Of a stretch of 64,000 nucleotides of DNA, positions 1 to 51,659 are shown piece by piece (the first letter of the stretch is position 1; every line of letters begins with the position of its first letter). The translations under genes were made by a program, and so were the position numbers. Below the pieces are notes generated by a model. The model saw only the letters and a list, made by a program, of their open reading frames with translations, had not been told where the DNA came from and did not search any database. Location of the stretch: the NCBI RefSeq assembly GCF_058153355.1, contig NZ_CM177019.1; one strand, 5' to 3'.

Positions 1-39
1 TAATTCAAGTGATTCACTTACTTTTATCGTTTCAGCCAT
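1..39 (-). CDS. rimL: ribosomal-protein-serine acetyltransferase RimL, first 13 codons only (gene continues past window start)
   Basis: ATG at 37..39 on minus strand preceded by GGAG; N-terminus MAETIKVSESLEL resembles RimL; expected neighbour of ydcH. Confidence 0.55.
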   Translation of the reverse strand, partial: MAETIKVSESLEL

Positions 40-68
40 CTTATCTCCAGTCAATCCATACAGTTGTT

Positions 69-92
69 AAAAAAGCCGCCTGGCTGGCGGCT
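69..92 (-). terminator. rho-independent terminator downstream of ydcH
   Basis: AGCCGCC/GGCGGCT hairpin followed by a 6-nt T run on the minus strand, immediately 3' of the ydcH stop. Confidence 0.6.
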
Positions 93-101
93 TAGGAAAG
101 T

Positions 102-326
102 TTACACCTCTTTGACGCTCTCCTGCTGCAGGATTTTGAGCATCTCATCTTTTAACTGTAGCTTTTGTTTTTTCATGCGGACCACTTCCGCATTGTACCC
201 TCGACCGTCGGAACCTTCCTTTCTGGCAATTTCATGATCAAGTTTATTGTGTTTATCGAACAAGGACATAAAGCGAGGATTTTCGTTTTTCAGACGGGAT
301 ATTAAATCTCGGTATTCTGGAAACAT
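102..326 (-). CDS. ydcH: DUF465-family small protein YdcH
   Basis: 76-aa ORF; conserved 74-aa product starts at MFPEYRDLISRLKNENPRF; position next to opgD. Confidence 0.85.
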   Translation of the reverse strand: MFPEYRDLISRLKNENPRFMSLFDKHNKLDHEIARKEGSDGRGYNAEVVRMKKQKLQLKDEMLKILQQESVKEV

Positions 327-465
327 ACGCACTCCCTGTTAGTGGCTGACAAGGTGTATCTGAAATACACACTATCAGATTACTCATTTAACTTAGGGAA
401 AAATGCGAGCGGGATCGTGTTTAACCAGACGGCACCTCCCGAAGAAGGTGCCGAAGAAAAAACGA

Positions 466-2121
466 TTAACTCATCACGCGGTCGTCAACATACTGACGTT
501 TATCCGGCGCTGGCGGGAAATACTGATACAGCCATGTTTCACTGATAGCGTCGCCCTGACAACGCAGATACATCCGCATATCGACCGGATCAGTGGAGTC
601 CGAAGTCGGATACCAGTCAAACTGAATACGATAACCATCAATGGGTTCAATATAGAGAATTTCGATTTGCTTCGCTTCCCCACTGGAAAGCGTAATCACC
701 GGCTCAATGCCTTTTGGTGCGGCAGCTTTCAGATCACCACCAACGAAATCGACGGCAAAACGACGCGCCCATTTTTCAAGATAGTGTTCACCAGGCGCCC
801 AACCTTCCGGGAAACCGCCCATGCCGGTACGCGTTGCCATAACGCGCGCTAATGGGCAATGAACAGGCGGTTGCGCACTCCAGTACAGACGATACTGGAA
901 TGCAAACTCATCACCCGCTTTTACAGCTTTTTCTGGCTGCCAGAAGCAGACAATGTTATCCAGCGTTTCGCCCGTTGTTGGGATTTCCATCAGGCCGATG
1001 GTGCCCTTACCCCACTTGTTACGCGGTTCCACCCACAGACTTGGGCGTTTGTTATACCAGCCCATAATGTCCTGATAATGAGAGAAATCACGATCCAGTT
1101 GCAATAAACCAAACCCTTTCGGGTTGTTGTCGGTGTAAGCATTGAACTGCAATTTTTGCGGATTATTCAGCGGACGGCAAATCCACTCGCCGTTGCCCCG
1201 CCACATGGACAGACGATCAGAGTCATGGATTTGCGGATGAATGGTGTCGCACATCCGACGTTCATTAGTGCCGCAGCTGAACATGCTGGTCATCGGCGCA
1301 ATGCCCAGCTGTTTAATGTCTTTGCGCGCATATAGGTGATTTTCCACATCCATAATCACCTGACTTTTCTCACAATGGATAGTGAACTTATAGGCACCAG
1401 TAATGCTGGCGCTATCGAGCAACGCATAAACGGTAAAGGTGGTTGCCCCCGGTTTTACCGTATCAAACCAGAAGGCGGTAAAGTCGGGGAACTCTTCTTT
1501 ACTGTCGGTGTAAGTGTCGATCGCCAGGCCGCGAGCCGACAAACCGTATTGATATGTATCATCAACCGCGCGGAAATAACTCGCACCGAGGAATGATACG
1601 ACATCACGGCGCGCCAGTTCGGGGGCTTTAAACACGCGAAAACCGGCAAAACCGAGATCGCTTTGCCCTTCTAATTGTTTGGTATCAACACCCGCATCGT
1701 TGTATTTGAACAACTCCGGGCGAAAGTGAATTTCACGCGCCAGATGTGTTGCGGGATCAACAGAAAACATACGAACGCGGCGACGGAATCCCATTCCCAT
1801 ATGGAAGAACTGAGCGTCCAGTTGACGGTTCTCAACGTTATGCCAGAGCGATTTTTCGGCGTCGTATTGAATACTGTTATAAGCCTGCGGCGTCATTGTC
1901 GCCAGAGTGTCAGGTAACGGACGCGGCGCACCACGCCACGCGGTTTGCGCTAAGTCGTGCGCCATTGACTGTAGAATGGAGAAGTCAAAACGCTGGGTTT
2001 GCCCGTCGGCAATATCAGAATCTGCCGCGAATGCCGCCTGAGAAAAAAGAGAAGCAATGCCGCTGGTACCGCACACGGCGGCCATAGCCATTGAACCTTT
2101 AATAAATCGTCTACGATCCAT
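466..2121 (-). CDS. opgD: glucans biosynthesis protein D (OpgD/MdoD), Tat-exported periplasmic protein
   Basis: 551-aa ORF with twin-arginine N-terminus ([15 protein letters not shown]...); recognised as MdoD. Confidence 0.95.
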
Positions 2122-2345
2122 ACCTGAAAGTGAGTCCTTCTGGTGTTGTGAATGGTCCCGCGCTGGTCGTTTTCAGCGGCAAGAAAGTGCTTATTTATGA
2201 CCGCTCACTCTAGACAATATTTATTAATAATCCAATTGTTGAACTCAGAGAATATGCATTAATCGGCAATTTTTTTATGTCGATGGGATGAGCCTGATTC
2301 GTTTGTAAAATCAGGCAAATTTTTGCAAAGGCGGATGGTCAGAAT

Positions 2346-3689
2346 TTAAAGCAAACCACAGCGACGTTTACTGCGTTCTTCCGCTTCCTGATAAAGCTGG
2401 AACTCATCCAAAACCGGGCAGCCCAACGCCTGCTCAAATGCTTCGCGACTGGCATTACCGTGACTGCGTGCCTGCGTTTCATTACCCAGATTTGACTGGA
2501 AGATCCCCGCCGCGCTAACGGGCAAGAAATCTTCATAGGTAATGGGTTGCGCCACTATCCAACCACGTTCAATTAAGGGCTGTGGATCGTCTCCGGGATG
2601 AATCGCCTGACGATGCGCCTCACCTGAAGGCGTCAGACGGTACCGGAACCATGCCAACCCTTGCTGACGCATTAAAAACTCACTGTCAGGAAAAGTGCGG
2701 AAGGTTTCCTGTAAATGCATTTGGTGAGTGAGATTATCCTGCCCGGTTCCAGCGTTCCGCAGTAGATCATCATACAGTTGTCGTCCTTTCGGCGTTAATG
2801 CCACGCCACGCTGCTCTATTTCACCAAAGCGCGCGGTATGCGTGCCCTGTTTCTGCCCCGCAAACAACACCTTCTCTTCCAGTGCTTTAAAGCTGGTCTG
2901 GCGTAGTAAAATCGGTACCTCGCGGCGCGGCGGCCCTTCGATCAGAATTTTGGGTTCAATTCCGCATTCAGGCATCATCGACTGCACACGGTCAATATCC
3001 AGCGTACGTGGCGTCAGGTGGTTGATATGGCATCCAGGAAAACAGACCACATCAGCAATCAGCCGATGTTCGTTATGCAAGGCGCGATAGGTTACTTCAT
3101 CCACCGTTGCTGACTGGTGCCAGCGAAACGTTTCCAGGGCTTCCTGCACAAACTCCTGTGCCTGTGTTTCGTTAAAACCGCCCAGCTGCTCATACTCCTC
3201 TAACAGTTGTCGACAACGTGGGGTGAAGATATCGCGCTGACGCAGAATCTCCGCCGCTTTCTGGCGCAAAAATTCGTTCTCGATAAGCTCCAGGCGGAGT
3301 AATGAGGTAAAAACGCGGAAGGGATTACGCGCCAGAGAAGCATCATCAATGGGCCGAAATGCTGTGGAATGTACCGGCACGCCCGCCTGCGAGAGATCGT
3401 AATAGCTCACCGGGTACATCCCCATAATGGCAAACATCCGCCGAAGAGTAGCAAGCTCTTGTGCGGTCCCGACGCGAATTGCCCCATGACGTTCAACATT
3501 CAGTCGCGCCAGCTCGTCTGCATTTACCATTTTTTCGTGCAGTTGAGGATTGTTTTCCAGCACAGCCAGATTCACATCAGCTACCAGTTCCAGCAGCGTG
3601 CCGTACTGCGGAACTTCTTGCTGGTACATGGCTGACATTGCCTGCGAAAACTGTTCCCGAATCTCATCCGCCGTGATGCTGTCCGCCAT
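2346..3689 (-). CDS. ydcJ: DUF1338 family protein YdcJ
   Basis: 447-aa ORF, divergent from ydcI; matches remembered YdcJ. Confidence 0.9.
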   Translation of the reverse strand: MADSITADEIREQFSQAMSAMYQQEVPQYGTLLELVADVNLAVLENNPQLHEKMVNADELARLNVERHGAIRVGTAQELATLRRMFAIMGMYPVSYYDLSQAGVPVHSTAFRPIDDASLARNPFRVFTSLLRLELIENEFLRQKAAEILRQRDIFTPRCRQLLEEYEQLGGFNETQAQEFVQEALETFRWHQSATVDEVTYRALHNEHRLIADVVCFPGCHINHLTPRTLDIDRVQSMMPECGIEPKILIEGPPRREVPILLRQTSFKALEEKVLFAGQKQGTHTARFGEIEQRGVALTPKGRQLYDDLLRNAGTGQDNLTHQMHLQETFRTFPDSEFLMRQQGLAWFRYRLTPSGEAHRQAIHPGDDPQPLIERGWIVAQPITYEDFLPVSAAGIFQSNLGNETQARSHGNASREAFEQALGCPVLDEFQLYQEAEERSKRRCGLL

Positions 3690-3905
3690 AATGTCTGCCT
3701 CCAGTGGTCAGTAATCTGGAGTGTAGGTAACCGCATTCACTCTGGCGGGAAGAATTTGCAAACTGTGATCTCGCCGCGAAAACATCAATATTATCCATTT
3801 TGCTGTAACACAATTGCTTTAATTGTTAATAATATTTTGCAATCAAGTTATCATGATCAAACAACTTCACTTGTCAGCGACACCGCTTCGTTTTTAACAT
3901 CGCTT

Positions 3906-4829
3906 ATGGAAAAAAATAGTCTGTTTAGTCAGCGCATCCGTTTGCGCCACCTTCATACATTCGTAGCTGTTGCACAACAAGGAACTTTGGGGCGCGCAGC
4001 TGAAACCCTTAATTTGAGTCAACCTGCGCTCTCCAAGACATTGAATGAACTAGAGCAATTGACAGGTGCTCGCTTGTTTGAGCGTGGTCGTCAGGGGGCG
4101 CAACTTACCTTACCCGGCGAACAATTTTTAACACATGCCGTCAGAGTTCTTGACGCTATTAACACTGCCGGACAGTCGCTTCATCGTAAAGAAGGTCTTA
4201 ACAATGATGTCGTCAGGGTAGGTGCATTACCTACCGCGGCGCTGGGAATATTACCTTCGGTTATAGGTCAGTTTCATCAGCAACAAAAAGAGACGACCTT
4301 GCAAGTTGCGACAATGAGTAACCCTATGATTCTGGCGGGTTTGAAGACCGGCGAAATCGATATTGGCATTGGTCGGATGTCAGATCCTGAACTGATGACC
4401 GGGCTTAATTATGAACTGCTGTTTCTTGAATCGCTGAAGCTGGTTGTCCGCCCTAATCACCCGCTACTTCAGGAGAACGTAACGCTAAGCCGGGTGCTGG
4501 AATGGCCGGTTGTTGTATCACCAGAAGGCACTGCGCCACGCCAGCATTCAGATGCATTAGTGCAGAGCCAGGGCTGTAAAATTCCTTCGGGCTGTATCGA
4601 AACACTGTCTGCTTCGCTATCTCGTCAACTTACGGTTGAATACGACTACGTGTGGTTTGTTCCATCTGGCGCTGTAAAAGACGACCTGCGTCATGCCACG
4701 CTGGTGGCCCTGCCTGTTCCGGGGCATGGTGCAGGCGAACCGATCGGAATATTGACCCGCGTAGATGCGACGTTCTCTTCCGGTTGCCAATTGATGATTA
4801 ACGCTATTCGAAAATCAATGCCGTTCTGA
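3906..4829 (+). CDS. ydcI: LysR-family transcriptional regulator YdcI
   Basis: ORF opens at 3756 but conserved 307-aa product starts at MEKNSLFSQRIRLRHLHTF; N-terminal LysR-type HTH. Confidence 0.85.
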   Translation: MEKNSLFSQRIRLRHLHTFVAVAQQGTLGRAAETLNLSQPALSKTLNELEQLTGARLFERGRQGAQLTLPGEQFLTHAVRVLDAINTAGQSLHRKEGLNNDVVRVGALPTAALGILPSVIGQFHQQQKETTLQVATMSNPMILAGLKTGEIDIGIGRMSDPELMTGLNYELLFLESLKLVVRPNHPLLQENVTLSRVLEWPVVVSPEGTAPRQHSDALVQSQGCKIPSGCIETLSASLSRQLTVEYDYVWFVPSGAVKDDLRHATLVALPVPGHGAGEPIGILTRVDATFSSGCQLMINAIRKSMPF

Positions 4830-4834
4830 AAAGT

Positions 4835-4854
4835 AAGGGATCTTTCGATCCCTT
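4835..4854. terminator. bidirectional rho-independent terminator between convergent ydcI and trg
   Basis: AAGGGATC-TTTC-GATCCCTT hairpin flanked by A/T runs on both sides. Confidence 0.6.
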
Positions 4855-4865
4855 CTTTGATATTT

Positions 4866-6506
4866 TCACGCTGTTGCGAAACTAACAGACTCACCAGCTC
4901 CGCGTGATTCTGCCAACACAGAATGTTTGTTCAGGCGGAAAACGTCTACCGCCTCAGTTAATCGTGCAGCCTGTTCTTCAAGGGATAGCGCCGCCGCAGA
5001 AGCCTCTTCTACCAGAGAAGCATTCTGTTGCGTCACCTTATCCATTTCGGAAATCGCCTGGCTCACCTGCGTTATGCCTGTACTTTGTTCATCCGAGGCG
5101 GCGGCAATCTCCTGCATGATATGTGTGACACTCGCGACGGCATCAACAATCGTGCTCATGGTTTTCCCTGCCGTTGCCACTTCAACCGACCCCAGGTCAA
5201 TTAACCTGACTGATTCACTGATCAAGCCTTCAATCTCTTTCGCCGCTTGGGCGCTGCGACTTGCGAGTGTCCGTACTTCGCTGGCGACAACGGCAAATCC
5301 ACGTCCTTGCTCACCCGCTCGCGCGGCTTCAACGGCAGCATTCAGCGCCAGAATATTTGTCTGGAAAGCAATGCTGTTGATGACGGCAGTGATCTCGGAA
5401 ATTTTCTTTGAACTCGTGGAGATTGCTCCCATCGTTCTAACTACACCGGAAACCGTCTCCCCGCCATCGCTGGCTTTAATGGAGGCCTCCTGCGCCAGTT
5501 TGCTGGCATGATGCGCGTTATCTGCATTCTGTTTCACCGTCGCAGTGAGTTGCTCCATGCTGGCGGCAGTTTGTTCAATTGCCGCCGCTTGTTCTTCGGT
5601 GCGAGATGAAAGGTCCGCATTGCCAGCGGAAATTTCGCTGGTGCCACGATAAATCTCTTCCGCGCCCTGTCGAACAGTCCCGACTGTCATCCCCAGTGAA
5701 TGCTGCATTTGCTGTAAATGACGACTTAAGCGACCGATTTCATTACGACCCGCCGGTTCATCATTCATCGTCAGATCGCCACTGGCAATTTTTTCAATCC
5801 GTTGTGCGGCATGTTGCAGTGGACGAATGACGATCCGACGTAGCACCATAAATGTTATCAGCGTCATGACCACGGCAAGCACAAACGCGCCAATCATAAA
5901 CATCACACCCAGGCGGGTACGCTGATGGGCCTGTTCCGCCAGTTGGTTGGCTCTGGTGCTACGTATCTTAACGGCTTTGCTCAAAATATCGGTATAAGCA
6001 TTATCCAGCGGTCGGATCTGCTCACTTTCATGATTGATAATCGCCTCAAACATGCCATTTTTGGCATATTTCAGCATGGGTTGGATACCCGTGATATAAG
6101 CCTGGAAACGTTGATTTAATTCAGCCTCGAGAGCTTCATCAGCAGGTGTTTTCACCGGCCGACTCCGGTAAGCCCGATAACCTTGCTGCGACTGTTTAAT
6201 CTCCGATTCGGCTTGCGCAATATTTCGCTTCATTGCTTCCATTTCCGCAATACGACTCGCGGCCCCGGCCTGAATCATATTGATCCGGGCCGAACGCAAA
6301 AAATCTGAGCTGTTCGCTAACCCGGTCCGAACCTCAATCTCTGCAGTCACATCACGCTGATCGCGATCGGCCTTCCAGAGGAAATAGCCAGCCAGGGCTG
6401 AACTCAAGGCAAACAGAAGTAAGATACCGCCAAGAATGCAGGCAAATAACGGAACCAGCCTGATGTGATGCAAAAAACCTAATCGCTGTGAGGGAGTTGT
6501 ATTCAT
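4866..6506 (-). CDS. trg: methyl-accepting chemotaxis protein III (ribose/galactose sensor)
   Basis: 546-aa ORF with two TM segments, HAMP and MCP signalling domain; matches Trg. Confidence 0.95.
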
Positions 6507-6545
6507 TACCGTTGTCTCTCTTCCAGGTTTACTCCTGATAGAAAG

Positions 6546-6572
6546 TCATCGGCATTTGACGGTAATTACTTA
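6546..6572 (-). promoter_or_regulatory. putative sigma-28 (FliA) promoter of trg
   Basis: minus strand reads TAAGTAAT-N11-GCCGATGA (consensus TAAAGTTT-N11-GCCGATAA) about 40 nt upstream of the trg start. Confidence 0.4.
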
Positions 6573-6798
6573 CGACTAAAAACCTCTTTGCGTCACATTT
6601 TTACAACAATTATTGCAGAGAAGATTAATGCCATTGGATTGAAGAAAGTGAGGAATGGTTAAACTGGCTAACCCGAATGACGAAAAATTCTGGAAAACAG
6701 CACGCTATTTCGTGAAGTGATTATTTTCGTCCCTAAGGAAACCTCATAGGATGCTCACGGGTGCCTGAGACTTTCTGTTTTCAGGCTAACCGGGAATC

Positions 6799-6846
6799 AG
6801 AAAGACGAAGGCCCCGACCGATATTTCTATCAACCGAGGCCAACGA

Positions 6847-6858
<12 letters not shown>
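6799..6858 (-). ncRNA. sokB: SokB antisense RNA (antitoxin of hokB); ends approximate
   Basis: antisense to mokB start region; candidate promoter TTGCCG-N17-TAACAT on minus strand inside mokB 5' end; hairpin and U-rich tail; coordinates inferred. Confidence 0.35.
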
Positions 6859-7054
<196 letters not shown>

Positions 7055-7125
7055 GGGCAAGCGCGGGGATTTTCCCCGCGCATCTGACTAGCGGATTCAG
7101 TTTCTCATGGCACCCCTTTTACACT

Positions 7126-7299
7126 TCAGTTAGTGCATGTTTTTTTCGATGCACTAATAGAACCATCATTACAGACAAATTTGCCGCCTGCCGTACAGTG
7201 TGAGATCCCCCCTTTCGAACCAGAACAGGGTTTGCGCCCGGCATCGGCATAAAAGGAAACAAGCGCTCCCATAACCAAGATAAGTGCCAATTTTTTCAT
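7126..7299 (-). CDS. ydcA: small secreted protein YdcA
   Basis: 57-codon ORF MKKLALILVMGALVSFYADAGRKPCSG... with signal peptide, translated by hand; between cybB and hokB. Confidence 0.8.
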   Translation of the reverse strand: MKKLALILVMGALVSFYADAGRKPCSGSKGGISHCTAGGKFVCNDGSISASKKTCTN

Positions 7300-7543
7300 A
7301 TAACCTCCATGATTTATCGAATCTTATGTTCGATTTGAACGTTATACGCTGGTTTATTTTGATACCGTTGATGAGATCAAAGATCGGGTGAATTGATTAA
7401 AGATAAGCCAGATGGACATATGGACAAGGATTATGGTTTTATTTGTCATACAAATAAATATAATAGGCGCTTCCGATGTAGGCCCGTATTCTTCGCCTGT
7501 ACCACGGGTCGGTTTTAGTACAGGCGTTTTCTTTAAATATCCT

Positions 7544-8074
7544 TCAGGAACGTTTACGCGGCATCATGCGTAGAAGTGTGTTGTCCTTCCAGAAATAGTG
7601 GTGTGCCAGTGCAGCCGCAGCGTGCAACCCGATGACAAAATATCCCAGATTCGCCAGCGTCTCATGCCACCACTTTAAGCTATCAACCCGTTCGAAATTG
7701 GCCTCTGCTGCATAAGGCATTGTCATACCAAACGCAAACCACGGGTTGCCCCGGTTATACATCATCACCAAACCAATCACTGGCAGCGCAATAAACAGGA
7801 GATAGATCACCAAATGTCCCAAATGTGCCAGTCCCGTCATCATCGGTTTTGGTTTAGGTACAATCGGCGGAGTTGAGTATTTAAGCCTTAGCAAAAGACG
7901 AACAACCATCAGCACGAGAATTGAGATGCCACAGGAAACATGAATCATGTTGATGAGCGGCCGATCGCTACGTGGGAAGAAACCACGAAACTCCATTGCG
8001 CAATACGCTGCGATAACCAGCAAAAAGACCAGCCAGTGAATGCTGATTTGTAACCTTGAGTATTTATTTTCCAT
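7544..8074 (-). CDS. cybB: cytochrome b561
   Basis: ORF 7544..8110; conserved 176-aa product starts at MENKYSRLQISIHWLVF; polytopic membrane protein with His ligands. Confidence 0.9.
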   Translation of the reverse strand: MENKYSRLQISIHWLVFLLVIAAYCAMEFRGFFPRSDRPLINMIHVSCGISILVLMVVRLLLRLKYSTPPIVPKPKPMMTGLAHLGHLVIYLLFIALPVIGLVMMYNRGNPWFAFGMTMPYAAEANFERVDSLKWWHETLANLGYFVIGLHAAAALAHHYFWKDNTLLRMMPRKRS

Positions 8075-8262
8075 AACATTTCCTGCTTTAAAACAATTTG
8101 CCGTTAACATAACGAGCTTTTCTTAAAATTTCATTAAATATTGTTCACCCGTTTTCAGTACGTTACGTTCCACGGCAAGAATGTAGATTGCCCATCCCGC
8201 CATCCTGGTCTAAGCCTGGAAAGGATCAATTTTCATCCGAACGTTCCTGACAGGAGAAGACC

Positions 8263-9264
8263 ATGAGTAAAGTTGGTATTAACGGTTTTGGTCGTATCGG
8301 TCGACTGGTGTTGCGTCGATTACTTGAAGTCAAAAGTAACATAGACATTGTCGCTATTAATGATCTCACTTCCCCAAAAATTCTCGCCTACCTGCTGAAA
8401 CATGATTCAAACTACGGACCGTTCCCTTGGAGCGTTGATTTTACGGAAGATTCACTTATCGTTGATGGAAAAAGTATCGCGGTTTACGCCGAAAAAGAGG
8501 CTAAAAATATTCCATGGAAAGCGAAAGGCGCAGAAATCATTGTCGAATGTACTGGCTTTTATACCTCCGCCGAGAAATCGCAGGCGCACCTTGATGCTGG
8601 TGCGAAGAAGGTGTTGATTTCCGCCCCTGCCGGTGAAATGAAAACCATCGTTTATAACGTCAATGACGACACACTGGATAGCAACGACACCATTGTTTCC
8701 GTGGCGTCATGCACCACTAACTGTCTTGCACCGATGGCCAAAGCCTTGCACGACAGTTTCGGAATAGAAGTCGGCACGATGACGACCATTCATGCCTATA
8801 CTGGCACCCAGTCACTGGTGGATGGCCCGCGAGGTAAAGATCTACGCGCTTCACGTGCAGCGGCAGAAAATATCATTCCCCACACTACAGGCGCGGCAAA
8901 AGCCATTGGTCTGGTGATCCCAGAACTGAGCGGCAAACTGAAAGGTCATGCGCAACGCGTACCCGTGAAAACAGGTTCGGTGACTGAACTGGTGTCTATT
9001 CTTGGAAAAAAAGTGACTGCCGAAGAGGTGAACAACGCGCTTAAAAACGCGACAAACAATAACGAGTCATTTGGTTATACCGATGAAGAAATAGTCTCTT
9101 CTGATATCATTGGCAGCCATTTCGGGTCGGTGTTTGATGCCACGCAAACCGAAATTACCGCCGTGGGCGATTTACAGTTGGTGAAAACGGTCGCCTGGTA
9201 TGATAACGAATATGGCTTCGTCACGCAGCTTATTCGCACCCTCGAAAAATTCGCTAAACTCTGA
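8263..9264 (+). CDS. gapC: glyceraldehyde-3-phosphate dehydrogenase C, intact
   Basis: uninterrupted 333-aa ORF with NAD-binding [10 protein letters not shown] and catalytic SCTTNC motifs. Confidence 0.9.
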
Positions 9265-9272
9265 CGAGCAAA

Positions 9273-9300
9273 GGCGGAGGGAAAAGCCTCCGCCTCTTTC
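9273..9300. terminator. bidirectional terminator between convergent gapC and aldA
   Basis: GGCGGAGG-GAAAAG-CCTCCGCC hairpin with flanking A and T runs. Confidence 0.55.
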
Positions 9301-9305
9301 ACTCA

Positions 9306-10745
9306 TTACGACTGTAAATAAACCACCTGGGTCTGCAGGTATTCATGCAAGCCATGTTTGCCATCTGCGCCGCCAATACCGGATTTACGCCATCCGGCGT
9401 GGAATCCTTGCATAGCTTCGAAGTTTTCACGGTTGATGTAAGTTTCACCAAACTTCAGCCCTTTAATAGCTTTCATCGCGACGTTCAGATTTTGGGTATA
9501 GAGTGATGAGGTCAGGCCGTAATCACTGTCATTAGCCATTGCGATAGCCTCTTCCAGCGTGTCAAATGCGACCACTGGCAGCACCGGGCCAAAGGTTTCC
9601 TCGTGCATAATCGACATTTCCTGACGAACATCCAGTAGCAATGTCGGCGGATAATAATATCCTTTCCCCTCTACTGCCTTGCCCCCCAACGCCACTCTCG
9701 CCCCCTCTTCGACTGCGCGCGCCACTTTTTGCTCGACCCTTTCCAGCGCCGCGGCGTTAATCAACGGCCCCATCGCAATGTCGTTGCGTTCAGCGGGGTT
9801 ACCAAATTGAACCGCCTGCATCGCTTCACCCAGCCGATTGACGAACTGATCATAAATGCCTTTCTGTACATAAACACGTTCTGCACAGTTACACACTTGC
9901 CCACTATTAATGACGCGTGAATCAACGATGGCTTTGACTGCCAGTTCAAGATCGGCATCGTCCATTACAATAGCTGGTGCTTTCCCCCCCAGCTCAAGAC
10001 ACACTTTGGTGATATTTTTCGCTGCAGTCGCCATGATCTTCTCACCAGCAGAAACACTGCCTGTCATACTGACCATTGCGACCTTTGGGTTACCCGCCAG
10101 TTCTTGCCCAACGGTTTCACCACGCCCCAGCACAAGGTTAAACACACCGCGTGGAAGGCCTATTTCATCGACAATTTTGGCAAAAGCAATCGCATTGTTT
10201 GGCGTAAATTCACTGGGTTTAATGACGATAGTATTACCGGTCAAAAGAGCGGGAGCCATTTTGCGGGCAATGAGGAAGAACGGGAAGTTCCACGGCAGAA
10301 TGCCGGTAGTCACGCCAAGCGCACGTTTAAACAGAAGAATATTTTCTCCTGGACGATCGCTTTGAATAATCTCGCCTTCATAACGCCGTGCCCACTCCGC
10401 CATGTAATCGATATAGTCCGCAGTAAAAGCCACTTCGACTTCAGACAGCTGCTGGATCTTGCCCCCTTCTTCAACAATCAGCGCACTAATTTCACTGGCG
10501 CGTTCGCGGATCCCGGCGGAGATTTTGCGCAACCAACTGGCGCGTTCAATGGCAGGCAACGCTTCCCATTCTGGTTGTGCACGTTCTGCTGCATCGATTG
10601 CCTTACGGGCATCCTCGGCCTGACCATCGGGAATGCGGGAAATGACCGCCTCTGTAGCAGGGTTTACCACATCAATCCATGCGTCTCCACGCCAGGTAAC
10701 AAACTGTCCATCTATATACATAGGATGTTGAACGGGTACTGACAT
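9306..10745 (-). CDS. aldA: lactaldehyde dehydrogenase (NAD-dependent aldehyde dehydrogenase A)
   Basis: 479-aa ORF, ALDH family; matches AldA. Confidence 0.95.
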   Translation of the reverse strand: MSVPVQHPMYIDGQFVTWRGDAWIDVVNPATEAVISRIPDGQAEDARKAIDAAERAQPEWEALPAIERASWLRKISAGIRERASEISALIVEEGGKIQQLSEVEVAFTADYIDYMAEWARRYEGEIIQSDRPGENILLFKRALGVTTGILPWNFPFFLIARKMAPALLTGNTIVIKPSEFTPNNAIAFAKIVDEIGLPRGVFNLVLGRGETVGQELAGNPKVAMVSMTGSVSAGEKIMATAAKNITKVCLELGGKAPAIVMDDADLELAVKAIVDSRVINSGQVCNCAERVYVQKGIYDQFVNRLGEAMQAVQFGNPAERNDIAMGPLINAAALERVEQKVARAVEEGARVALGGKAVEGKGYYYPPTLLLDVRQEMSIMHEETFGPVLPVVAFDTLEEAIAMANDSDYGLTSSLYTQNLNVAMKAIKGLKFGETYINRENFEAMQGFHAGWRKSGIGGADGKHGLHEYLQTQVVYLQS

Positions 10746-10940
10746 GGGCGACTCCTGTGATTTATATGTTTGTTTTTGGTAAATGCATTGTTAATTAACA
10801 TCAATCATCATAGAGACGGCATCGTGAAAGGACAATTCTGTGAAGGGCTTCATAAAAACAAGTGTAAAAGGAATAAAAGGCAGAAATAAACGTCAGGAGT
10901 CATGCCCGTTTGCAAACAGTTGTTCTCAAACGGGCAATTT

Positions 10941-11741
10941 TCAACGTAGCGAGCGACTTTCCATCGCCTCGATAAGCACAGCATCGTGTTTCAGCCTTTG
11001 CCATGCCTGGGTGACTTCTGCAGGAAAATCAACGTGAACGATAAAATCTCGCCCGCGTGGACCGTAGCCATCGCTATCATCGCGTAAACGTGGCAGCTCG
11101 CCAGTGAGTAGTGAGAGATAACGCTCAACCGGCCATAATCCTTGCAACGGATTAACAAAGATTACACTGTCTGCGTTGTTTCCTAGCTGAGGAACGAATC
11201 CGGGATAACTTAACCAGCGAGGTGCATCTGGATTGTCCCCGGTCATACGGCGGAACGTCGCCATCGTGCGCCGCTGCATGGTGGGGTCCTGAACAACGAT
11301 AGCCGTATGAACTCTTTCTACGGCCTGATTCAATAGCGCGATGCTAAAGCGTGCGTTTTCACCGCAGTTTGTTGACTGGTCTTCAATCCAGATTTTTTCA
11401 TGCGGAATGTGCCAGAACTGATGAGCGATATCCGCCAGGATGGTAGCTTCTGCTCTGCCAGTGGTGCGGATAGTGTTGTAGTGCGGATGCTGTGCGATGG
11501 CGCTATACAAAAAAGTTGTCGAGTGACCGATACCACCACTAATCAGTAGAGGAATTTGCTGATCGCGGGCAATCTTACATGCCGCATCGATAGTCGGCAT
11601 AACCGCATTGCCTGCAAGGATCACGCAATCGGCCTGATATGGCTCCTCTCCGGAGAAATCATCCTGCGCCAGCCACTGTCCGATAACATTTATGGCATCT
11701 ATGGTTGCCGTCGAAAGCGTCGGAAACGGGGTAATGTTCAT
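10941..11741 (-). CDS. ydcF: DUF218-family protein YdcF
   Basis: 266-aa [27 protein letters not shown]...; matches YdcF. Confidence 0.9.
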
Positions 11742-12155
11742 GGTTCCTCCTTATAGTTCCCTTAAGAATACTGCGTGAGATAATAATGAGAAGCGGAGCC
11801 ATCTGAAAGGTAGTTGATGCTTTTTCTATCGCGCCATCGCGAACCAGACACTTGTTTAAGTCATACACTATTTGCGGAGAAACTGTTGATAAAACATCAA
11901 TAACATAATGTTCTATCATTTTTAAATGACAGATAATCTGGTGTGATATTTATATAATATTCATTCTTATATTTCTCAATCAAGGGGAACATTTGGTATC
12001 CAGTGTATCGTCCTCATCAACCAGATGTGTTATAAGCACTTTACCTCGTTAATTTTAATATTACGAGTTACAGGACAAAACATCACTCGAATTTAGTCCA
12101 GTAACTCGTAGTAGCCAGAGTATACGTACCCATTGATAAAATGTCTGGCAATAAA

Positions 12156-13013
12156 TTAACCAGCTATACTCGCACTCGTCGGCCCTGTTTCAATACTACC
12201 CACAATATCAATAATGTGCCCCCAGAACATATCATCATCGTTATAATATAATGAATAATCTCTATTATAATCCATAGTCAACTCAACAAGATTTATTCTG
12301 CTAACAAACATATCTTCTGTAATTTCTTCATCTTCTTCATCTTGAAGCCAGTCATTGGCCAATTCAGTTAATTGTTCTGCGGCATATTGCCTAAACTCCT
12401 GATCTTTTTGTTGCATATGACTACATAAAAATCGCAGATTTTCAAAAGCCTGTTGCCAGGTATATCTATCATTCTTATCTACTTCCATAGATACAGAAAT
12501 ATTCTGATCATTCCATTTCACTTCCCCGCTAAAACAGGAGTAGTCTTTATTAAGCACGAAAGTCCCCAATTGCTGATCTTCAACAACAACTGGTTTGCGA
12601 TATTCTTTCTGAATATTGAGCAGTTCCTCACACTGAACATGACTTTCAAGAACCTCAAGAACATAAAACCGATTATAAAACTCGGCTAACTTTCCTTCCG
12701 GCACGGTCCTGTCAATCAAATCTCGTACTCTCAGGCGATATATACCACCAGACTGCATATTAAACGGCCACGCACAGCCTTGAGTTTTCTCATTTTCTTC
12801 TGTTATCAACCAGTTGAGTCGTCCATCTCCAACGTGAATTTCTCCCGTCGTCAGACTCTTCCAGGCGAGTAAGTGTTCAACCGCTGTCCAGTAATTATCA
12901 CCGTTACTCTTACCCGCGCCACCGCCAGTATCACTAAGAAGAACGATAATTTCTTCTTCTGTATCTTTAAATGTATGACTAAATTTTTTGTATTCTTCAG
13001 AATTTAAGTCCAT
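12156..13013 (-). CDS. orphan hypothetical protein (285 aa, acidic, no recognisable motif) in AT-rich islet
   Basis: single long ORF in a visibly AT-rich insert between ydcF and hrpA; ATG preceded by a GGGG SD-like run; no TM, signal peptide, HTH or nucleotide-binding motif seen. Confidence 0.6.
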   Translation of the reverse strand: MDLNSEEYKKFSHTFKDTEEEIIVLLSDTGGGAGKSNGDNYWTAVEHLLAWKSLTTGEIHVGDGRLNWLITEENEKTQGCAWPFNMQSGGIYRLRVRDLIDRTVPEGKLAEFYNRFYVLEVLESHVQCEELLNIQKEYRKPVVVEDQQLGTFVLNKDYSCFSGEVKWNDQNISVSMEVDKNDRYTWQQAFENLRFLCSHMQQKDQEFRQYAAEQLTELANDWLQDEEDEEITEDMFVSRINLVELTMDYNRDYSLYYNDDDMFWGHIIDIVGSIETGPTSASIAG

Positions 13014-13163
13014 TTTTGCCCCGGTGAAAAATAAATTTGATCAATAACATTGAGTGCCGCAGTAATGAATGTGTTATCGATAATTCAAAAATGACTGCGT
13101 ACGCCACAAGCCTACTCCCTACGCGACGTAAGGAGTACCGCCCTTGCTATTTTTCAGAATTCA

Positions 13164-13195
13164 TAAAAAAACCCGGCGCTAAATGCTTACCGGGT
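13164..13195 (-). terminator. rho-independent terminator of hrpA
   Basis: ACCCGG...CCGGGT hairpin followed by a 7-nt T run on the minus strand, about 30 nt past the hrpA stop. Confidence 0.6.
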
Positions 13196-13222
13196 TTTAG
13201 ATTTATCAGGCAAATAGCAGTG

Positions 13223-16200
13223 TTAACCGCTAATCTGTTCCATCGCCTGCAGAATACGCTTATCTGAAATCGGATAGGGTGTACCGAGTTGTTGGGCAAA
13301 ATAGCTGACGCGCAACTCCTCTATCATCCAGCGTATCTCTTTCACGTCTTCATCCTCACGACGTGCAGGCGGCAGTTTGTTGATCCATTGCTGCCACGCC
13401 TGCTGGACGTTTTCAACTTTCAGCATCTGAGCACGGTCACGGTGCGGGTCAACCGCCAGTTTTTCCAGACGCTTTTCAATCGCCTGCAAATAACGCAGCG
13501 TGTCGCCCAGGCGTTTGAAGCCATTACCAGTGACAAAACCGCGATACACCAGCCCACTCATCTGCGCTTTAATGTCAGAAAGCCCCAGCGCCATGGTCAT
13601 ATCCACCCGCCCTTTCAGGCGTTTGTTGATATTGAACACCGCTGTGAGGATTTGCTCGACCTGCTTCGCAATATCCACCACCGTGTCGTTCAGTTCAGCG
13701 CGCACTTTTTCATGCAACGCAGCAAAGCCTTCTTCCGTCCAGACCGGGCCGCCCGCCTCATCAATCAATTTATCAACACCGCAGGAGATGCAGTCGTCAA
13801 TAAGATCCAGCACTTTACCGTACGGGTTAAAGTAGAGACCCAGCTTTGCTTTATTCGGCAGTTTCTCATGCAGATATTTAATTGGCGACGGAATGTTCAG
13901 CAACAGCAAGCGACGCAAACCACGCCACATAGCCTGCTGTTGTTCCTGCGGGTTATCAAAAAGCTTAATCGCTACGCTGTCACGCTCATCCACCAGCGCA
14001 GGCCAGGCCTTCACTTTGTAGTTGCCACGTTTCTGCTCGTAGTGATCCGGTAAATTACCGAAGCTCCAGATATGTAACCCGCTTTGCTCAATACCATCAT
14101 CGGCAACGGCGGAAAGCGTTTCCTGCACTTTGCCTTTCAGGGCATCTTTCAGATCCTGTAATGAGCGCCCTTCTTTTAGCTTCTTATTTTTGTCGTCCAC
14201 CACGCGGAAGGTGATTTTCAGGTGATCAGGCACCTGATCCCAGTGCCAGTCTTCGCGGTCAACGGTAACGCCGGTCATCCGCCGTAGCTCGCGCTCAAGG
14301 CTGTCGAGCAACGGCAGTTCCAACGGCGTGACGCGACCTAAAAACGCTTCGGCGTAGTTTGGCGCGGGCACAAAATTACGCCGTACCGGTTTCGGCAACG
14401 ATTTGATTAGAGCAATCACCAGTTCACGGCGCAGGCCTGGGATCTGCCACTCAAACCCGCTTTCCTCAACCTGGTTAAGTAACGGCAGCGGAATATGCAC
14501 GGTCACACCGTCAGCATCCGCCCCCGGCTCAAACTGATAGCTTAAACGCAGCTTGAGATTGCCCTGATGCCAGAAGTTCGGGTAATCCAGCTTGCTGATT
14601 TTTTCCGCCCCTTCTTTGATCAACATGCTCTTTTCAAAGTTGAGCAAATCAGGTGTTTCGCGGCTGACTTTTTTCCACCAACTATCAAAGTGTCGTGCGG
14701 AAATCACATCGTGGCTGATGCGCTGGTCGTAAAACTCAAACAACGTTTCGTCATCCACCAGAATATCGCGGCGACGTGATTTGTGTTCCAGTTCTTCCAC
14801 TTCTGCCCGTAGTTTCAGGTTTTCACGGAAGAATGCGTGACGCGTCTGCCAGTCACCTTCCACCAGCGCGTGGCGAATAAAAAGTTCACGACACAGCGCA
14901 GGATCAATCTGGCTGTAGTTGACCTTACGCGCAGCAACAATCGGCAACCCGTAAACGGTGACTTTTTCAGTTGCCATCACCGCGCCCTGCGCCCGTTCCC
15001 AGTGCGGTTCGCTGTAGGAGCGTTTAATCAAATGCTGGGCAACTGGCTCTACCCATTCCGGATCGATGCGTGCCGCAATGCGCCCCCACAGGCGGCTGGT
15101 TTCTACCAGTTCCGCCACCATTGCCCATTTCGGCGGCTTCTTGAATAAACCAGAACCGGGGAAGATGGAGAAACGCGCGTTACGTGCGCCGGTATATTCC
15201 TGTTTATCGGCATCTTTCATGCCGATATGCGAAAGCAAACCTGTCAGTAAGGCGATGTGAATTTCGCGATACTCCGCCGGTTCGCTGTTAACCGGAATGC
15301 CAAGTTCTTTCACCACCTGGCGCAACTGGGTGTAGATATCCTGCCATTCGCGCACGCGCAGATAGTTAAGGTAATCGGTACGGCACAGGCGACGGAAGGC
15401 GTTTGAAGAGAGCGCCTTTTGCTGCTCGCCGAGATAATTCCACAGATTTACAAACGCCAGGAAGTCGGATTCTTTATCGTGAAAGCGACGATGTTTTTCG
15501 TCCGATGCCTGCTGCTTGTCCATTGGCCGCTCACGCGGGTCCTGAATAGAGAGCGCGGAAGTGATAATCATCGCCTCACGCACGCAGCCATGTTTCTGCG
15601 CTTCCAACACCATTCGCGCCAGACGAGGATCGACTGGCAGTTGCGAGAGCTGGCGACCGAGCGGCGTCAGTTTATAGGCGCTGGCCTGTTCATCAGTGGT
15701 GATCGCGCCCAGCTCTTCGAGCAGACGCACGCCATCCTGGATATTGCGTTTATCCGGCGCTTCTACAAACGGGAACGCAGCGATATCGCCCAGCCCCAGC
15801 GCGGTCATCTGCAAAATAACCGAGGCCAGGTTGGTACGCAGAATCTCCGGATCGGTAAATTCCGGGCGCGAGAGGAAATCGTCTTCGGAATAAAGACGAA
15901 TGCAGATCCCTTCTGACACACGACCACAGCGGCCTTTACGCTGATTAGCTGAAGCCTGCGAAATGGGCTCAATCGGCAGACGCTGTACTTTGGTGCGATA
16001 GCTGTAGCGGCTAATACGCGCCGTACCTGGGTCGATAACGTATTTAATCCCCGGCACGGTCAGCGACGTTTCCGCGACGTTAGTCGCCAGCACAATGCGC
16101 CGTCCGCTGTGCGACTGGAAGACGCGGTTCTGCTCGCTGTTCGAAAGCCGTGCATAAAGCGGAAGAATTTCCGTATGGCGTAAGTTCAGCTTGTTCAGCG

Positions 16201-17125
16201 CATCGGCGGTATCGCGAATTTCTCGCTCGCCGCTCATAAAAATCAGAATGTCGCCAGGGCTTTCCTGGCTCAGTTCATCTACGGCATCGAAAATCGCCTG
16301 CAACTGGTCGCGCTCGGTGTCATCAGCTTCTTCAACAATCGGGCGATAGCGCACCTCCACCGGATAGGTACGACCGGAGACTTCGATAATCGGCGCATTA
16401 TTAAAGTGGCGCGAAAAGCGTTCCGGGTCGATAGTCGCGGAAGTGATAATGATTTTTAGGTCAGGACGCCGCGGCAGTAACTCTTTCAAATAACCGAGGA
16501 GAAAATCGATATTCAGGCTGCGTTCGTGCGCTTCGTCAATAATGATGGTGTCGTACTGCATCAGCAGGCGGTCTTGCTGGAGCTCCGCCAGCAGGATACC
16601 GTCGGTCATCAGCTTGACCATCGTGTTATCACTTACGTGATCGCTGAAACGCACTTTATACCCGATGCAACCGCCCGGCTCCGTTTTCAGCTCTTCCGCA
16701 ATACGGTTCGCCACCGTTCGTGCCGCCAGACGACGCGGCTGGGTATGGCCGATCAGCCCTTTAATCCCGCGGCCCAGTTCCATACAGATTTTCGGTAGCT
16801 GAGTCGTTTTCCCGGAACCCGTTTCCCCGGCGACGATCACCACCTGGTGATCACGGATTGCTTCGAGAATGTCCTGCTTTTTCTGACTAACCGGCAAATT
16901 GTCTGGATAAGTGATTTCCGGTCGTACTGCTTCACGCAGCAGGACTTTCCCTGCCGCCTGGTCAATCTCTTTCGCCATCTCCTGGAAAATGGCCTGTTGT
17001 GCATCAGGATTTTTAACCTTCTTCACGCCGTGCAGACGGCGGGAAAAACGCAGTCTGTCACGCAGCATCAGCGAATCCAACCGTTGCTGCAAGGCCGTAA
17101 AGGTCAATTTTTGTTGTTCTGTCAT
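13223..17125 (-). CDS. hrpA: ATP-dependent RNA helicase HrpA (DEAH-box)
   Basis: 1300-aa ORF with GETGSGKTTQ Walker A and DEAH motifs; matches HrpA. Confidence 0.95.
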   Translation of the reverse strand: MTEQQKLTFTALQQRLDSLMLRDRLRFSRRLHGVKKVKNPDAQQAIFQEMAKEIDQAAGKVLLREAVRPEITYPDNLPVSQKKQDILEAIRDHQVVIVAGETGSGKTTQLPKICMELGRGIKGLIGHTQPRRLAARTVANRIAEELKTEPGGCIGYKVRFSDHVSDNTMVKLMTDGILLAELQQDRLLMQYDTIIIDEAHERSLNIDFLLGYLKELLPRRPDLKIIITSATIDPERFSRHFNNAPIIEVSGRTYPVEVRYRPIVEEADDTERDQLQAIFDAVDELSQESPGDILIFMSGEREIRDTADALNKLNLRHTEILPLYARLSNSEQNRVFQSHSGRRIVLATNVAETSLTVPGIKYVIDPGTARISRYSYRTKVQRLPIEPISQASANQRKGRCGRVSEGICIRLYSEDDFLSRPEFTDPEILRTNLASVILQMTALGLGDIAAFPFVEAPDKRNIQDGVRLLEELGAITTDEQASAYKLTPLGRQLSQLPVDPRLARMVLEAQKHGCVREAMIITSALSIQDPRERPMDKQQASDEKHRRFHDKESDFLAFVNLWNYLGEQQKALSSNAFRRLCRTDYLNYLRVREWQDIYTQLRQVVKELGIPVNSEPAEYREIHIALLTGLLSHIGMKDADKQEYTGARNARFSIFPGSGLFKKPPKWAMVAELVETSRLWGRIAARIDPEWVEPVAQHLIKRSYSEPHWERAQGAVMATEKVTVYGLPIVAARKVNYSQIDPALCRELFIRHALVEGDWQTRHAFFRENLKLRAEVEELEHKSRRRDILVDDETLFEFYDQRISHDVISARHFDSWWKKVSRETPDLLNFEKSMLIKEGAEKISKLDYPNFWHQGNLKLRLSYQFEPGADADGVTVHIPLPLLNQVEESGFEWQIPGLRRELVIALIKSLPKPVRRNFVPAPNYAEAFLGRVTPLELPLLDSLERELRRMTGVTVDREDWHWDQVPDHLKITFRVVDDKNKKLKEGRSLQDLKDALKGKVQETLSAVADDGIEQSGLHIWSFGNLPDHYEQKRGNYKVKAWPALVDERDSVAIKLFDNPQEQQQAMWRGLRRLLLLNIPSPIKYLHEKLPNKAKLGLYFNPYGKVLDLIDDCISCGVDKLIDEAGGPVWTEEGFAALHEKVRAELNDTVVDIAKQVEQILTAVFNINKRLKGRVDMTMALGLSDIKAQMSGLVYRGFVTGNGFKRLGDTLRYLQAIEKRLEKLAVDPHRDRAQMLKVENVQQAWQQWINKLPPARREDEDVKEIRWMIEELRVSYFAQQLGTPYPISDKRILQAMEQISG

Positions 17126-17316
17126 AACGTTAGTGGGCAGCAGGCTGCCTGATTAATTTTCTTTTAAATGATAGATATAGAGTACCACATTGCGGCTTTC
17201 TATGCGTTGTTCAATAAATTCGAACATAGGCTTCGATTTATTGCGCTATCTCTGTGGCAGGATTGTGAATAAAGTGTCAACAAGCAACGGGGCATCGCCC
17301 ATTCAAACATCTATAA

Positions 17317-17931
<615 letters not shown>

Positions 17932-17984
17932 CCGGACACGATCTTGATGTGGACTGTAGATATTCAGTCCACATCTCAATCCGC

Positions 17985-20747
<2,763 letters not shown>

Positions 20748-40961: not shown

Positions 40962-40990
40962 ATGCTCTGGATAAGGATTATCCAATTCTA

Positions 40991-41099
40991 AAAAAAAGCC
41001 CGAACGACTGTTCGGGCTTGTCTTCTTATATGTTGGAAAATCAGTGGCAATGCAATGGCCCAACAGAAAATAAAATCTGTGACAATAAAGGCATATAAC
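40991..41099 (-). ncRNA. micC: MicC sRNA (Hfq-dependent repressor of ompC/ompD)
   Basis: minus strand reads GTTATATGCCTTTATTGTCACAGATTTTATTTTCTGTTGGGCCATTGCATTGCC...GCCCGAACAGTCGTTCGGGCTTTTTTTT, recognised as MicC; terminator shared with ydbK. Confidence 0.85.
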
Positions 41100-41326
41100 C
41101 CGCGCAGAATAACGTATAGCAAATTAAAAGTATAATTTTTATTTTGTATGTATTATCTTCGATACATTCACCAGACTTATTATCATTTCAGAGGAATTAT
41201 TTGATTAAGGTTTTACTTAAGGCGTAACAAATGATATTTATCGGCTAACTGAACTTCTCCTTTAGGATGTTTTCATTCCCCGAAATGGGGATAAAAGGCA
41301 AATAAAATAACTAAAGGATTTATTCA

Positions 41327-48059: not shown

Positions 48060-48181
48060 AAAAAAAAGCCGACTCATCAAAGTCGGCGTCGTACGAATCA
48101 ATTGTGCTATGCAGTAATTCAAAAAAGGAAGTAAGACAATATGGAGCGCAACGCCCATCGCTTGACGTTGCATTCACCTGC
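48060..48181 (-). ncRNA. fnrS: FnrS sRNA (FNR-activated, Hfq-dependent)
   Basis: minus strand reads GCAGGTGAATGCAACGTCAAGCGATGGGCGTTGCGCTCCATATTGTCTTACTTCCTTTTTTGAATTACTGCATAGCAC...GCCGACTTTGATGAGTCGGCTTTTTTTT, recognised as FnrS with intrinsic terminator. Confidence 0.85.
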
Positions 48182-51557: not shown

Positions 51558-51651
51558 ACCGGCGCAGAGGAGACCATGCCGGATTTAAGACGCGGATGCA
51601 CTGCTGTGTGTACTGTAGAGTCTGGCGGATGTCGACAGACTCTATTTTTTT
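51558..51651 (+). ncRNA. mcaS: McaS sRNA (IsrA)
   Basis: ACCGGCGCAGAGGAGACCATGCCGGATTTAAGACGCGGATGCACTGCTGTGTGTACTGTAGAGTCTGGCGGATGTCGACAGACTCTATTTTTTT recognised as McaS; terminal hairpin plus T7; between smrA and abgR. Confidence 0.7.
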
Positions 51652-51659
51652 ATGCAGTT

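Follow-up and report, generated by a model that had tools for sequence, protein, structure and literature searches.

An intact gapC at the cybB-aldA locus: the common state in Escherichia coli of a gene that is broken in K-12

In Escherichia coli, gapA and epd co-occur with gapC. GapA, the main glycolytic glyceraldehyde-3-phosphate dehydrogenase (GAPDH) of the organism, shares its fold, its reaction and its SCTTNC motif with GapC, but it is encoded at another locus, and K-12 GapA is only 46% identical to the GapC protein considered here. A far closer relative has been characterized as EcGAPDH1, for which a series of crystal structures is available (PDB 7C5F plus 13 entries; 7C5G, 7C5H, 7C7K and related). 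The purified enzyme has a KM of 0.73 mM for glyceraldehyde-3-phosphate (G3P) in an assay of NADH formation with NAD+, and its activity was abolished by the C150A substitution and lowered about 8000-fold by H177A (Zhang et al., 2021; PMC8615399). Furthermore, the structures visualize the thiohemiacetal at Cys150, the hydride transfer and the phosphorolysis (PMC8615399). The name gapC does not appear in the structure paper (PMC8615399); the sequence in the PDB is the GapC allele that is common in E. coli, as found, for example, in an O20:H12 strain (WP_000048667.1).

The gene has also been described from K-12 and from natural isolates. In a K-12 derivative (NZ_CP062241.1) gapC is annotated as 'frameshifted; internal stop', and in a K-12 ChIP-seq table it appears as 'gapC_1 ... 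(pseudogene)'; both confirm the pseudogene status that the original prediction had given for K-12. Intact gapC has been reported in environmental E. coli isolates, with preferential expression in fresh water (Espinosa-Urgel and Kolter, 1998, Mol Microbiol 28:325, PMID 9622357, as summarized in PMC2949598). The same study is cited, where a review touches on it, for an adaptive role of laterally acquired gapC (PMC1796617). As far as these summaries describe it, the intact gapC of natural isolates is the same phenomenon as the one described below, with no substantial difference.

Here we analyse gapC in a 64,000-nt stretch of DNA (the window; contig NZ_CM177019.1 of RefSeq assembly GCF_058153355.1). 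As had been predicted from the open reading frame, the gene is a single uninterrupted frame from ATG to TGA, encoding 333 amino acids (Table 1), and its extent is the same as that of the RefSeq coding sequence in strain Z0117EC0005, to which it is 99.7% identical. The product has the two-domain architecture of a GAPDH, with an NAD-binding N-terminal domain (Pfam Gp_dh_N, PF00044; residues 3-102, E = 9e-36) and a catalytic C-terminal domain (Gp_dh_C, PF02800; residues 155-313, E = 4e-58). On the TIGR01534 profile (GAPDH-I, EC 1.2.1.12) it scores 447 bits against a curated equivalog cut-off of 367.2, and the match covers the whole profile (1-330 of 330). With these Pfam and TIGR01534 matches, the frame is no chance open reading frame. 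The NAD-binding and catalytic cysteine motifs that had been claimed for it were both located, the first as a GxGxxG motif within a dinucleotide-binding region at residues 5-14 and the second as SCTTNC with Cys150; the catalytic histidine, His177, was found in addition. The role of GxGxxG in dinucleotide binding is established for Rossmann-fold GAPDHs, and Asp34 is an NAD-preferring residue. Three short antisense or overlapping frames (8402-8617, 9075-9302 and 9200-9415) were without support and were treated as spurious.

We are confident that positions 8263-9264 hold an intact and functional E. coli gapC orthologue, that its product is a type I, phosphorylating GAPDH dependent on NAD+, and that the gene lies in its usual place between cybB and aldA in what is the common state of the locus. 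The activity of this particular allele, and its expression in its own strain, are parts of this reading that we infer.

Table 1. Positions of gapC, its diagnostic residues, the sites altered in K-12 and the surrounding features of the window
Feature	Coordinates	Strand	Basis or remark
sok (hokB/sokB locus)	6759-6910	+	Rfam match at gathering threshold
RydC	7470-7533	+	Rfam match at gathering threshold
cybB	7544-8074	-	
cybB-gapC divergent intergenic region, 188 nt, presumed promoter region	8075-8262	.	position
Shine-Dalgarno sequence AGGAG	8252-8256	+	6 nt before the gapC ATG; direct reading
gapC coding sequence	8263-9264	+	333 codons and TGA; open reading frame, Pfam, TIGR01534
GxGxxG dinucleotide-binding motif (G8-F-G10-R-I-G13)	8284-8301	+	translation
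Asp34 codon	8362-8364	+	translation
Codon 39, AAA (Lys); TAA in K-12 (gene nt 115, A>T)	8377-8379	+	alignment with K-12 derivative; changed base 8377
Catalytic Cys150 (TGC), inside SCTTNC	8710-8712	+	sequence; EcGAPDH1 C150A
Catalytic His177 (CAT)	8791-8793	+	sequence; EcGAPDH1 H177A
A7 run, gene nt 744-750, codons 248-250 (GGA AAA AAA); A6 in K-12	9006-9012	+	alignment
9-bp G+C-rich hairpin between gapC and aldA	9272-9295	.	fold -20.2 kcal/mol, z = -3.8
aldA	9306-10745	-	convergent with gapC
ydcF	10941-11741		neighbour beyond aldA
DUF7021/DUF2262 frame, 285 aa	12156-13013	-	between ydcF and hrpA
MicC	40982-41102	-	Rfam match at gathering threshold
FnrS	48064-48181	-	Rfam match at gathering threshold
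McaS	51558-51653	+	Rfam match at gathering threshold

An alignment to K-12 gapC had been proposed as the way to find the K-12 lesion. When the gene of the K-12 derivative was aligned with that of the window, the two sequences, which occupy the same cybB-aldA locus and are 95.6% identical, were found to differ by 43 substitutions and one deletion, and K-12 proved to carry a nonsense mutation at codon 39 as well as a 1-nt deletion in an A-run that has seven residues in the window. With one A fewer, the K-12 sequence reads GGA AAA AAG TGA at this point and stops after Lys250. A further difference is R18G. Thus, the claim that gapC is broken in K-12 holds, and with two lesions rather than one the gene would in principle be left in three pieces. 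Compared with the intact O20:H12 allele, K-12 gapC has six synonymous substitutions and one non-synonymous substitution, and with both lesions and R18G set aside it reads as a normal allele. As K-12 gapC lies so near to the O20:H12 allele, its inactivation is recent.

The original prediction had implied that an intact gapC would be unusual, and this was not borne out: in most E. coli the gene is intact, and reports of an intact gapC go back to 1998. A gapC match was present in 5417 of the 5426 complete E. coli genomes in RefSeq, with the best match per genome in the 90-95% identity band or higher and a top match of 99.7%, so that by nucleotide identity the gene of the window falls within the E. 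coli gapC orthologue group. The distribution of the two K-12 lesions was followed with exact short sequences. A 59-mer carrying the K-12 TAA was found in 1152 genomes and its AAA counterpart in 3221, the remainder having other single-nucleotide differences there, while a 70-mer carrying the K-12 A6 run was found in 1041; EDL933 (O157:H7) and ATCC 8739 are among those with A7. We also sampled 40 rows at even steps down the ranking of E. coli matches. Thirty-two of these were ungapped matches of 1002 bp, seven were of 1000-1001 bp and one was truncated, and all 15 of the ungapped matches that were retrieved are annotated as intact coding sequences with protein accessions and have no internal stops. 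From these 40 sampled rows and the three haplotype counts we estimate that gapC is intact in roughly four-fifths of complete E. coli genomes, and that the double-lesion haplotype of K-12 belongs to a minority, about one-fifth. The intact form is the common state of the species and probably also the ancestral one.

The double lesion of K-12 is a natural haplotype, carried by some 1000-1150 of the 5426 genomes, and cannot be put down to laboratory domestication alone, contrary to what the literature summary implies. For example, TAA at codon 39 together with A6 occurs in the human isolate 720632 (NZ_CP025842.1), and in the sediment isolate ET5 (NZ_CP101014.1) the same two lesions are joined by the loss of one more nucleotide, at gene nt 988.

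The surroundings of gapC in the window are those expected of the orthologue, with cybB on one side and aldA, convergent with gapC, on the other. The gene order sokB/hokB-RydC-cybB-gapC-aldA-ydcF is shared with K-12, Z0117EC0005 and other E. coli genomes. The 188-nt spacer between cybB and gapC is 93.6% identical to that of K-12, with no indels, and 100% identical to that of Z0117EC0005. The longest open reading frame at cybB is of 188 aa (7544-8110, minus strand; first base of the ATG at 8110), and in the RefSeq annotations of relatives the start is placed 12 codons further in (176 aa, from 8074); taken mechanically, the overlong frame would leave an apparent cybB-gapC spacer of 152 nt instead of 188. 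Downstream, the hairpin between gapC and aldA is probably a bidirectional terminator serving both genes. A simple terminator scan gave no call at this hairpin, because the T-run there is short. An Rfam scan of the whole window gave no RNA family inside or antisense to gapC; the families that it did return elsewhere, RydC, sok, MicC, FnrS and McaS, are ordinary E. coli small RNAs at their expected loci.

An open frame need not be a working gene, and the alternative that survives best, although we hold it to be improbable, is that gapC in the window is silent or already decaying, a cryptic gene that has yet to acquire its lesion. Loss of the gene is evidently tolerated, as about one-fifth of E. 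coli genomes have a dead copy, and the additional deletion in ET5 indicates that decay continues once the gene is broken. Furthermore, a scan of positions 8000-9400 for sigma-70 consensus promoters found no site upstream of gapC. However, the expression signals that can be recognized have been kept: the Shine-Dalgarno sequence and the probable terminator are in place, and the upstream region is free of indels in comparison with that of K-12. The K-12 ChIP-seq study lists a peak of sigma-S RNA polymerase in the interval from gapC_1 to cybB, and environment-specific promoter activity has been reported, according to the summary in PMC2949598. The pattern of substitution also argues against decay. 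Pairwise dN/dS values were calculated by the Nei-Gojobori method for six intact gapC alleles and the repaired K-12 sequence, and all pairs except one gave values between 0.015 and 0.07, dS being up to 0.2. The exception was the pair formed by the window and Z0117EC0005, with a value of 0.155 that is based on three substitutions only. Such low ratios at dS values of up to 0.2 point to strong and long-standing purifying selection on gapC.

It is considerably less likely still that the gene is functional but that its product is a GAPDH-fold enzyme of another specificity, whether an Epd-like erythrose-4-phosphate dehydrogenase, an ArsJ-coupled enzyme of arsenate detoxification or an NADP-dependent form. 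The protein does align over its full length with the Epd and ArsJ-associated models, but it falls well short of their curated cut-offs: 276.8 against 530.55 bits for TIGR01532 and 280.8 against 539 bits for NF010058 (Epd), and 308 against 450 bits for the ArsJ-associated GAPDH model NF033735. There is no arsJ nearby, the neighbours being cybB and aldA. Identity as a GapA-type enzyme was similarly rejected (300.2 bits against a cut-off of 662; NF011954, PRK15425). Asp34 argues for NAD rather than NADP, and the comparison with EcGAPDH1, which oxidizes G3P with NAD+, is more direct. The two proteins are identical at 329 of 333 positions (98.8%) over their full length and have the same catalytic Cys150 and His177; EcGAPDH1 differs from the GapC of the window by I29V, S140G, N262Q and N265T, all of which are conservative allelic substitutions. 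By this analogy, the GapC of the window very probably has NAD-dependent GAPDH activity. An enzyme assay of the cloned gene had been proposed as a check, and with the assay of EcGAPDH1 a near-identical protein has in effect already been put to this test.

With GapC read as a type I GAPDH, its reaction would be expected to follow the course visualized for EcGAPDH1. Cys150 would attack G3P to form a thiohemiacetal, a hydride would then pass to NAD+ with His177 acting as the base, and phosphate would cleave the resulting thioacyl intermediate to release 1,3-bisphosphoglycerate. Neither gapA nor epd was found in the 64-kb window, where gapC is the sole GAPDH homologue.

The idea that misassembly produced the open frame, through a wrong homopolymer count in the A-run, draws on the fact that the K-12 frameshift lies in just the kind of sequence where long-read assemblies err, but we regard it as negligible, as an independent Logan short-read contig (SRR8656992) matches positions 1-19264 of the window with one mismatch, most of the sampled complete genomes have A7, and codon 39 is intact too.

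The exact GapC protein of the window already has a public record ('MULTISPECIES: type I glyceraldehyde-3-phosphate dehydrogenase [Escherichia]') and is represented on 45 contigs, and the cluster to which it belongs at 90% identity comprises 4797 sequences, one of them from Citrobacter freundii. Over positions 1-25000 the highest identity among the 5426 complete RefSeq E. coli genomes is about 98.3%, with most near 96.2%, and the flanking aldA is just 97.4% identical to that of Z0117EC0005, the strain that matches gapC at 99.7%. These comparisons suggest an under-sampled or mosaic Escherichia lineage as the source of the window. The frame with DUF7021 and DUF2262 domains beyond ydcF has a G+C content of 38.6%, compared with 48.4% for the window; K-12 has no gene there, and among contigs with the same GapC it is present in four and absent in three. 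Its appearance is that of a variable insertion of small size. We think it unlikely that the minor GapC allele of such a lineage (I29/S140/N262/N265) would have distinct properties or a condition-specific role, for example in cold fresh-water survival, and nothing points in that direction.

In summary, the intact gapC of the window is an already known condition and the usual one for the species. What purpose is served by a second GAPDH beside GapA is a question that the window makes no more tractable, and as a counterpoint to any need for gapC, some 20% of E. coli genomes lack an intact copy. The gene is a pseudogene in K-12 and in about one-fifth of genomes, but elsewhere it is mostly intact, constrained and, as judged from EcGAPDH1, enzymatically competent. 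In this respect gapC illustrates how poorly K-12 serves as a reference for the gene content of E. coli.
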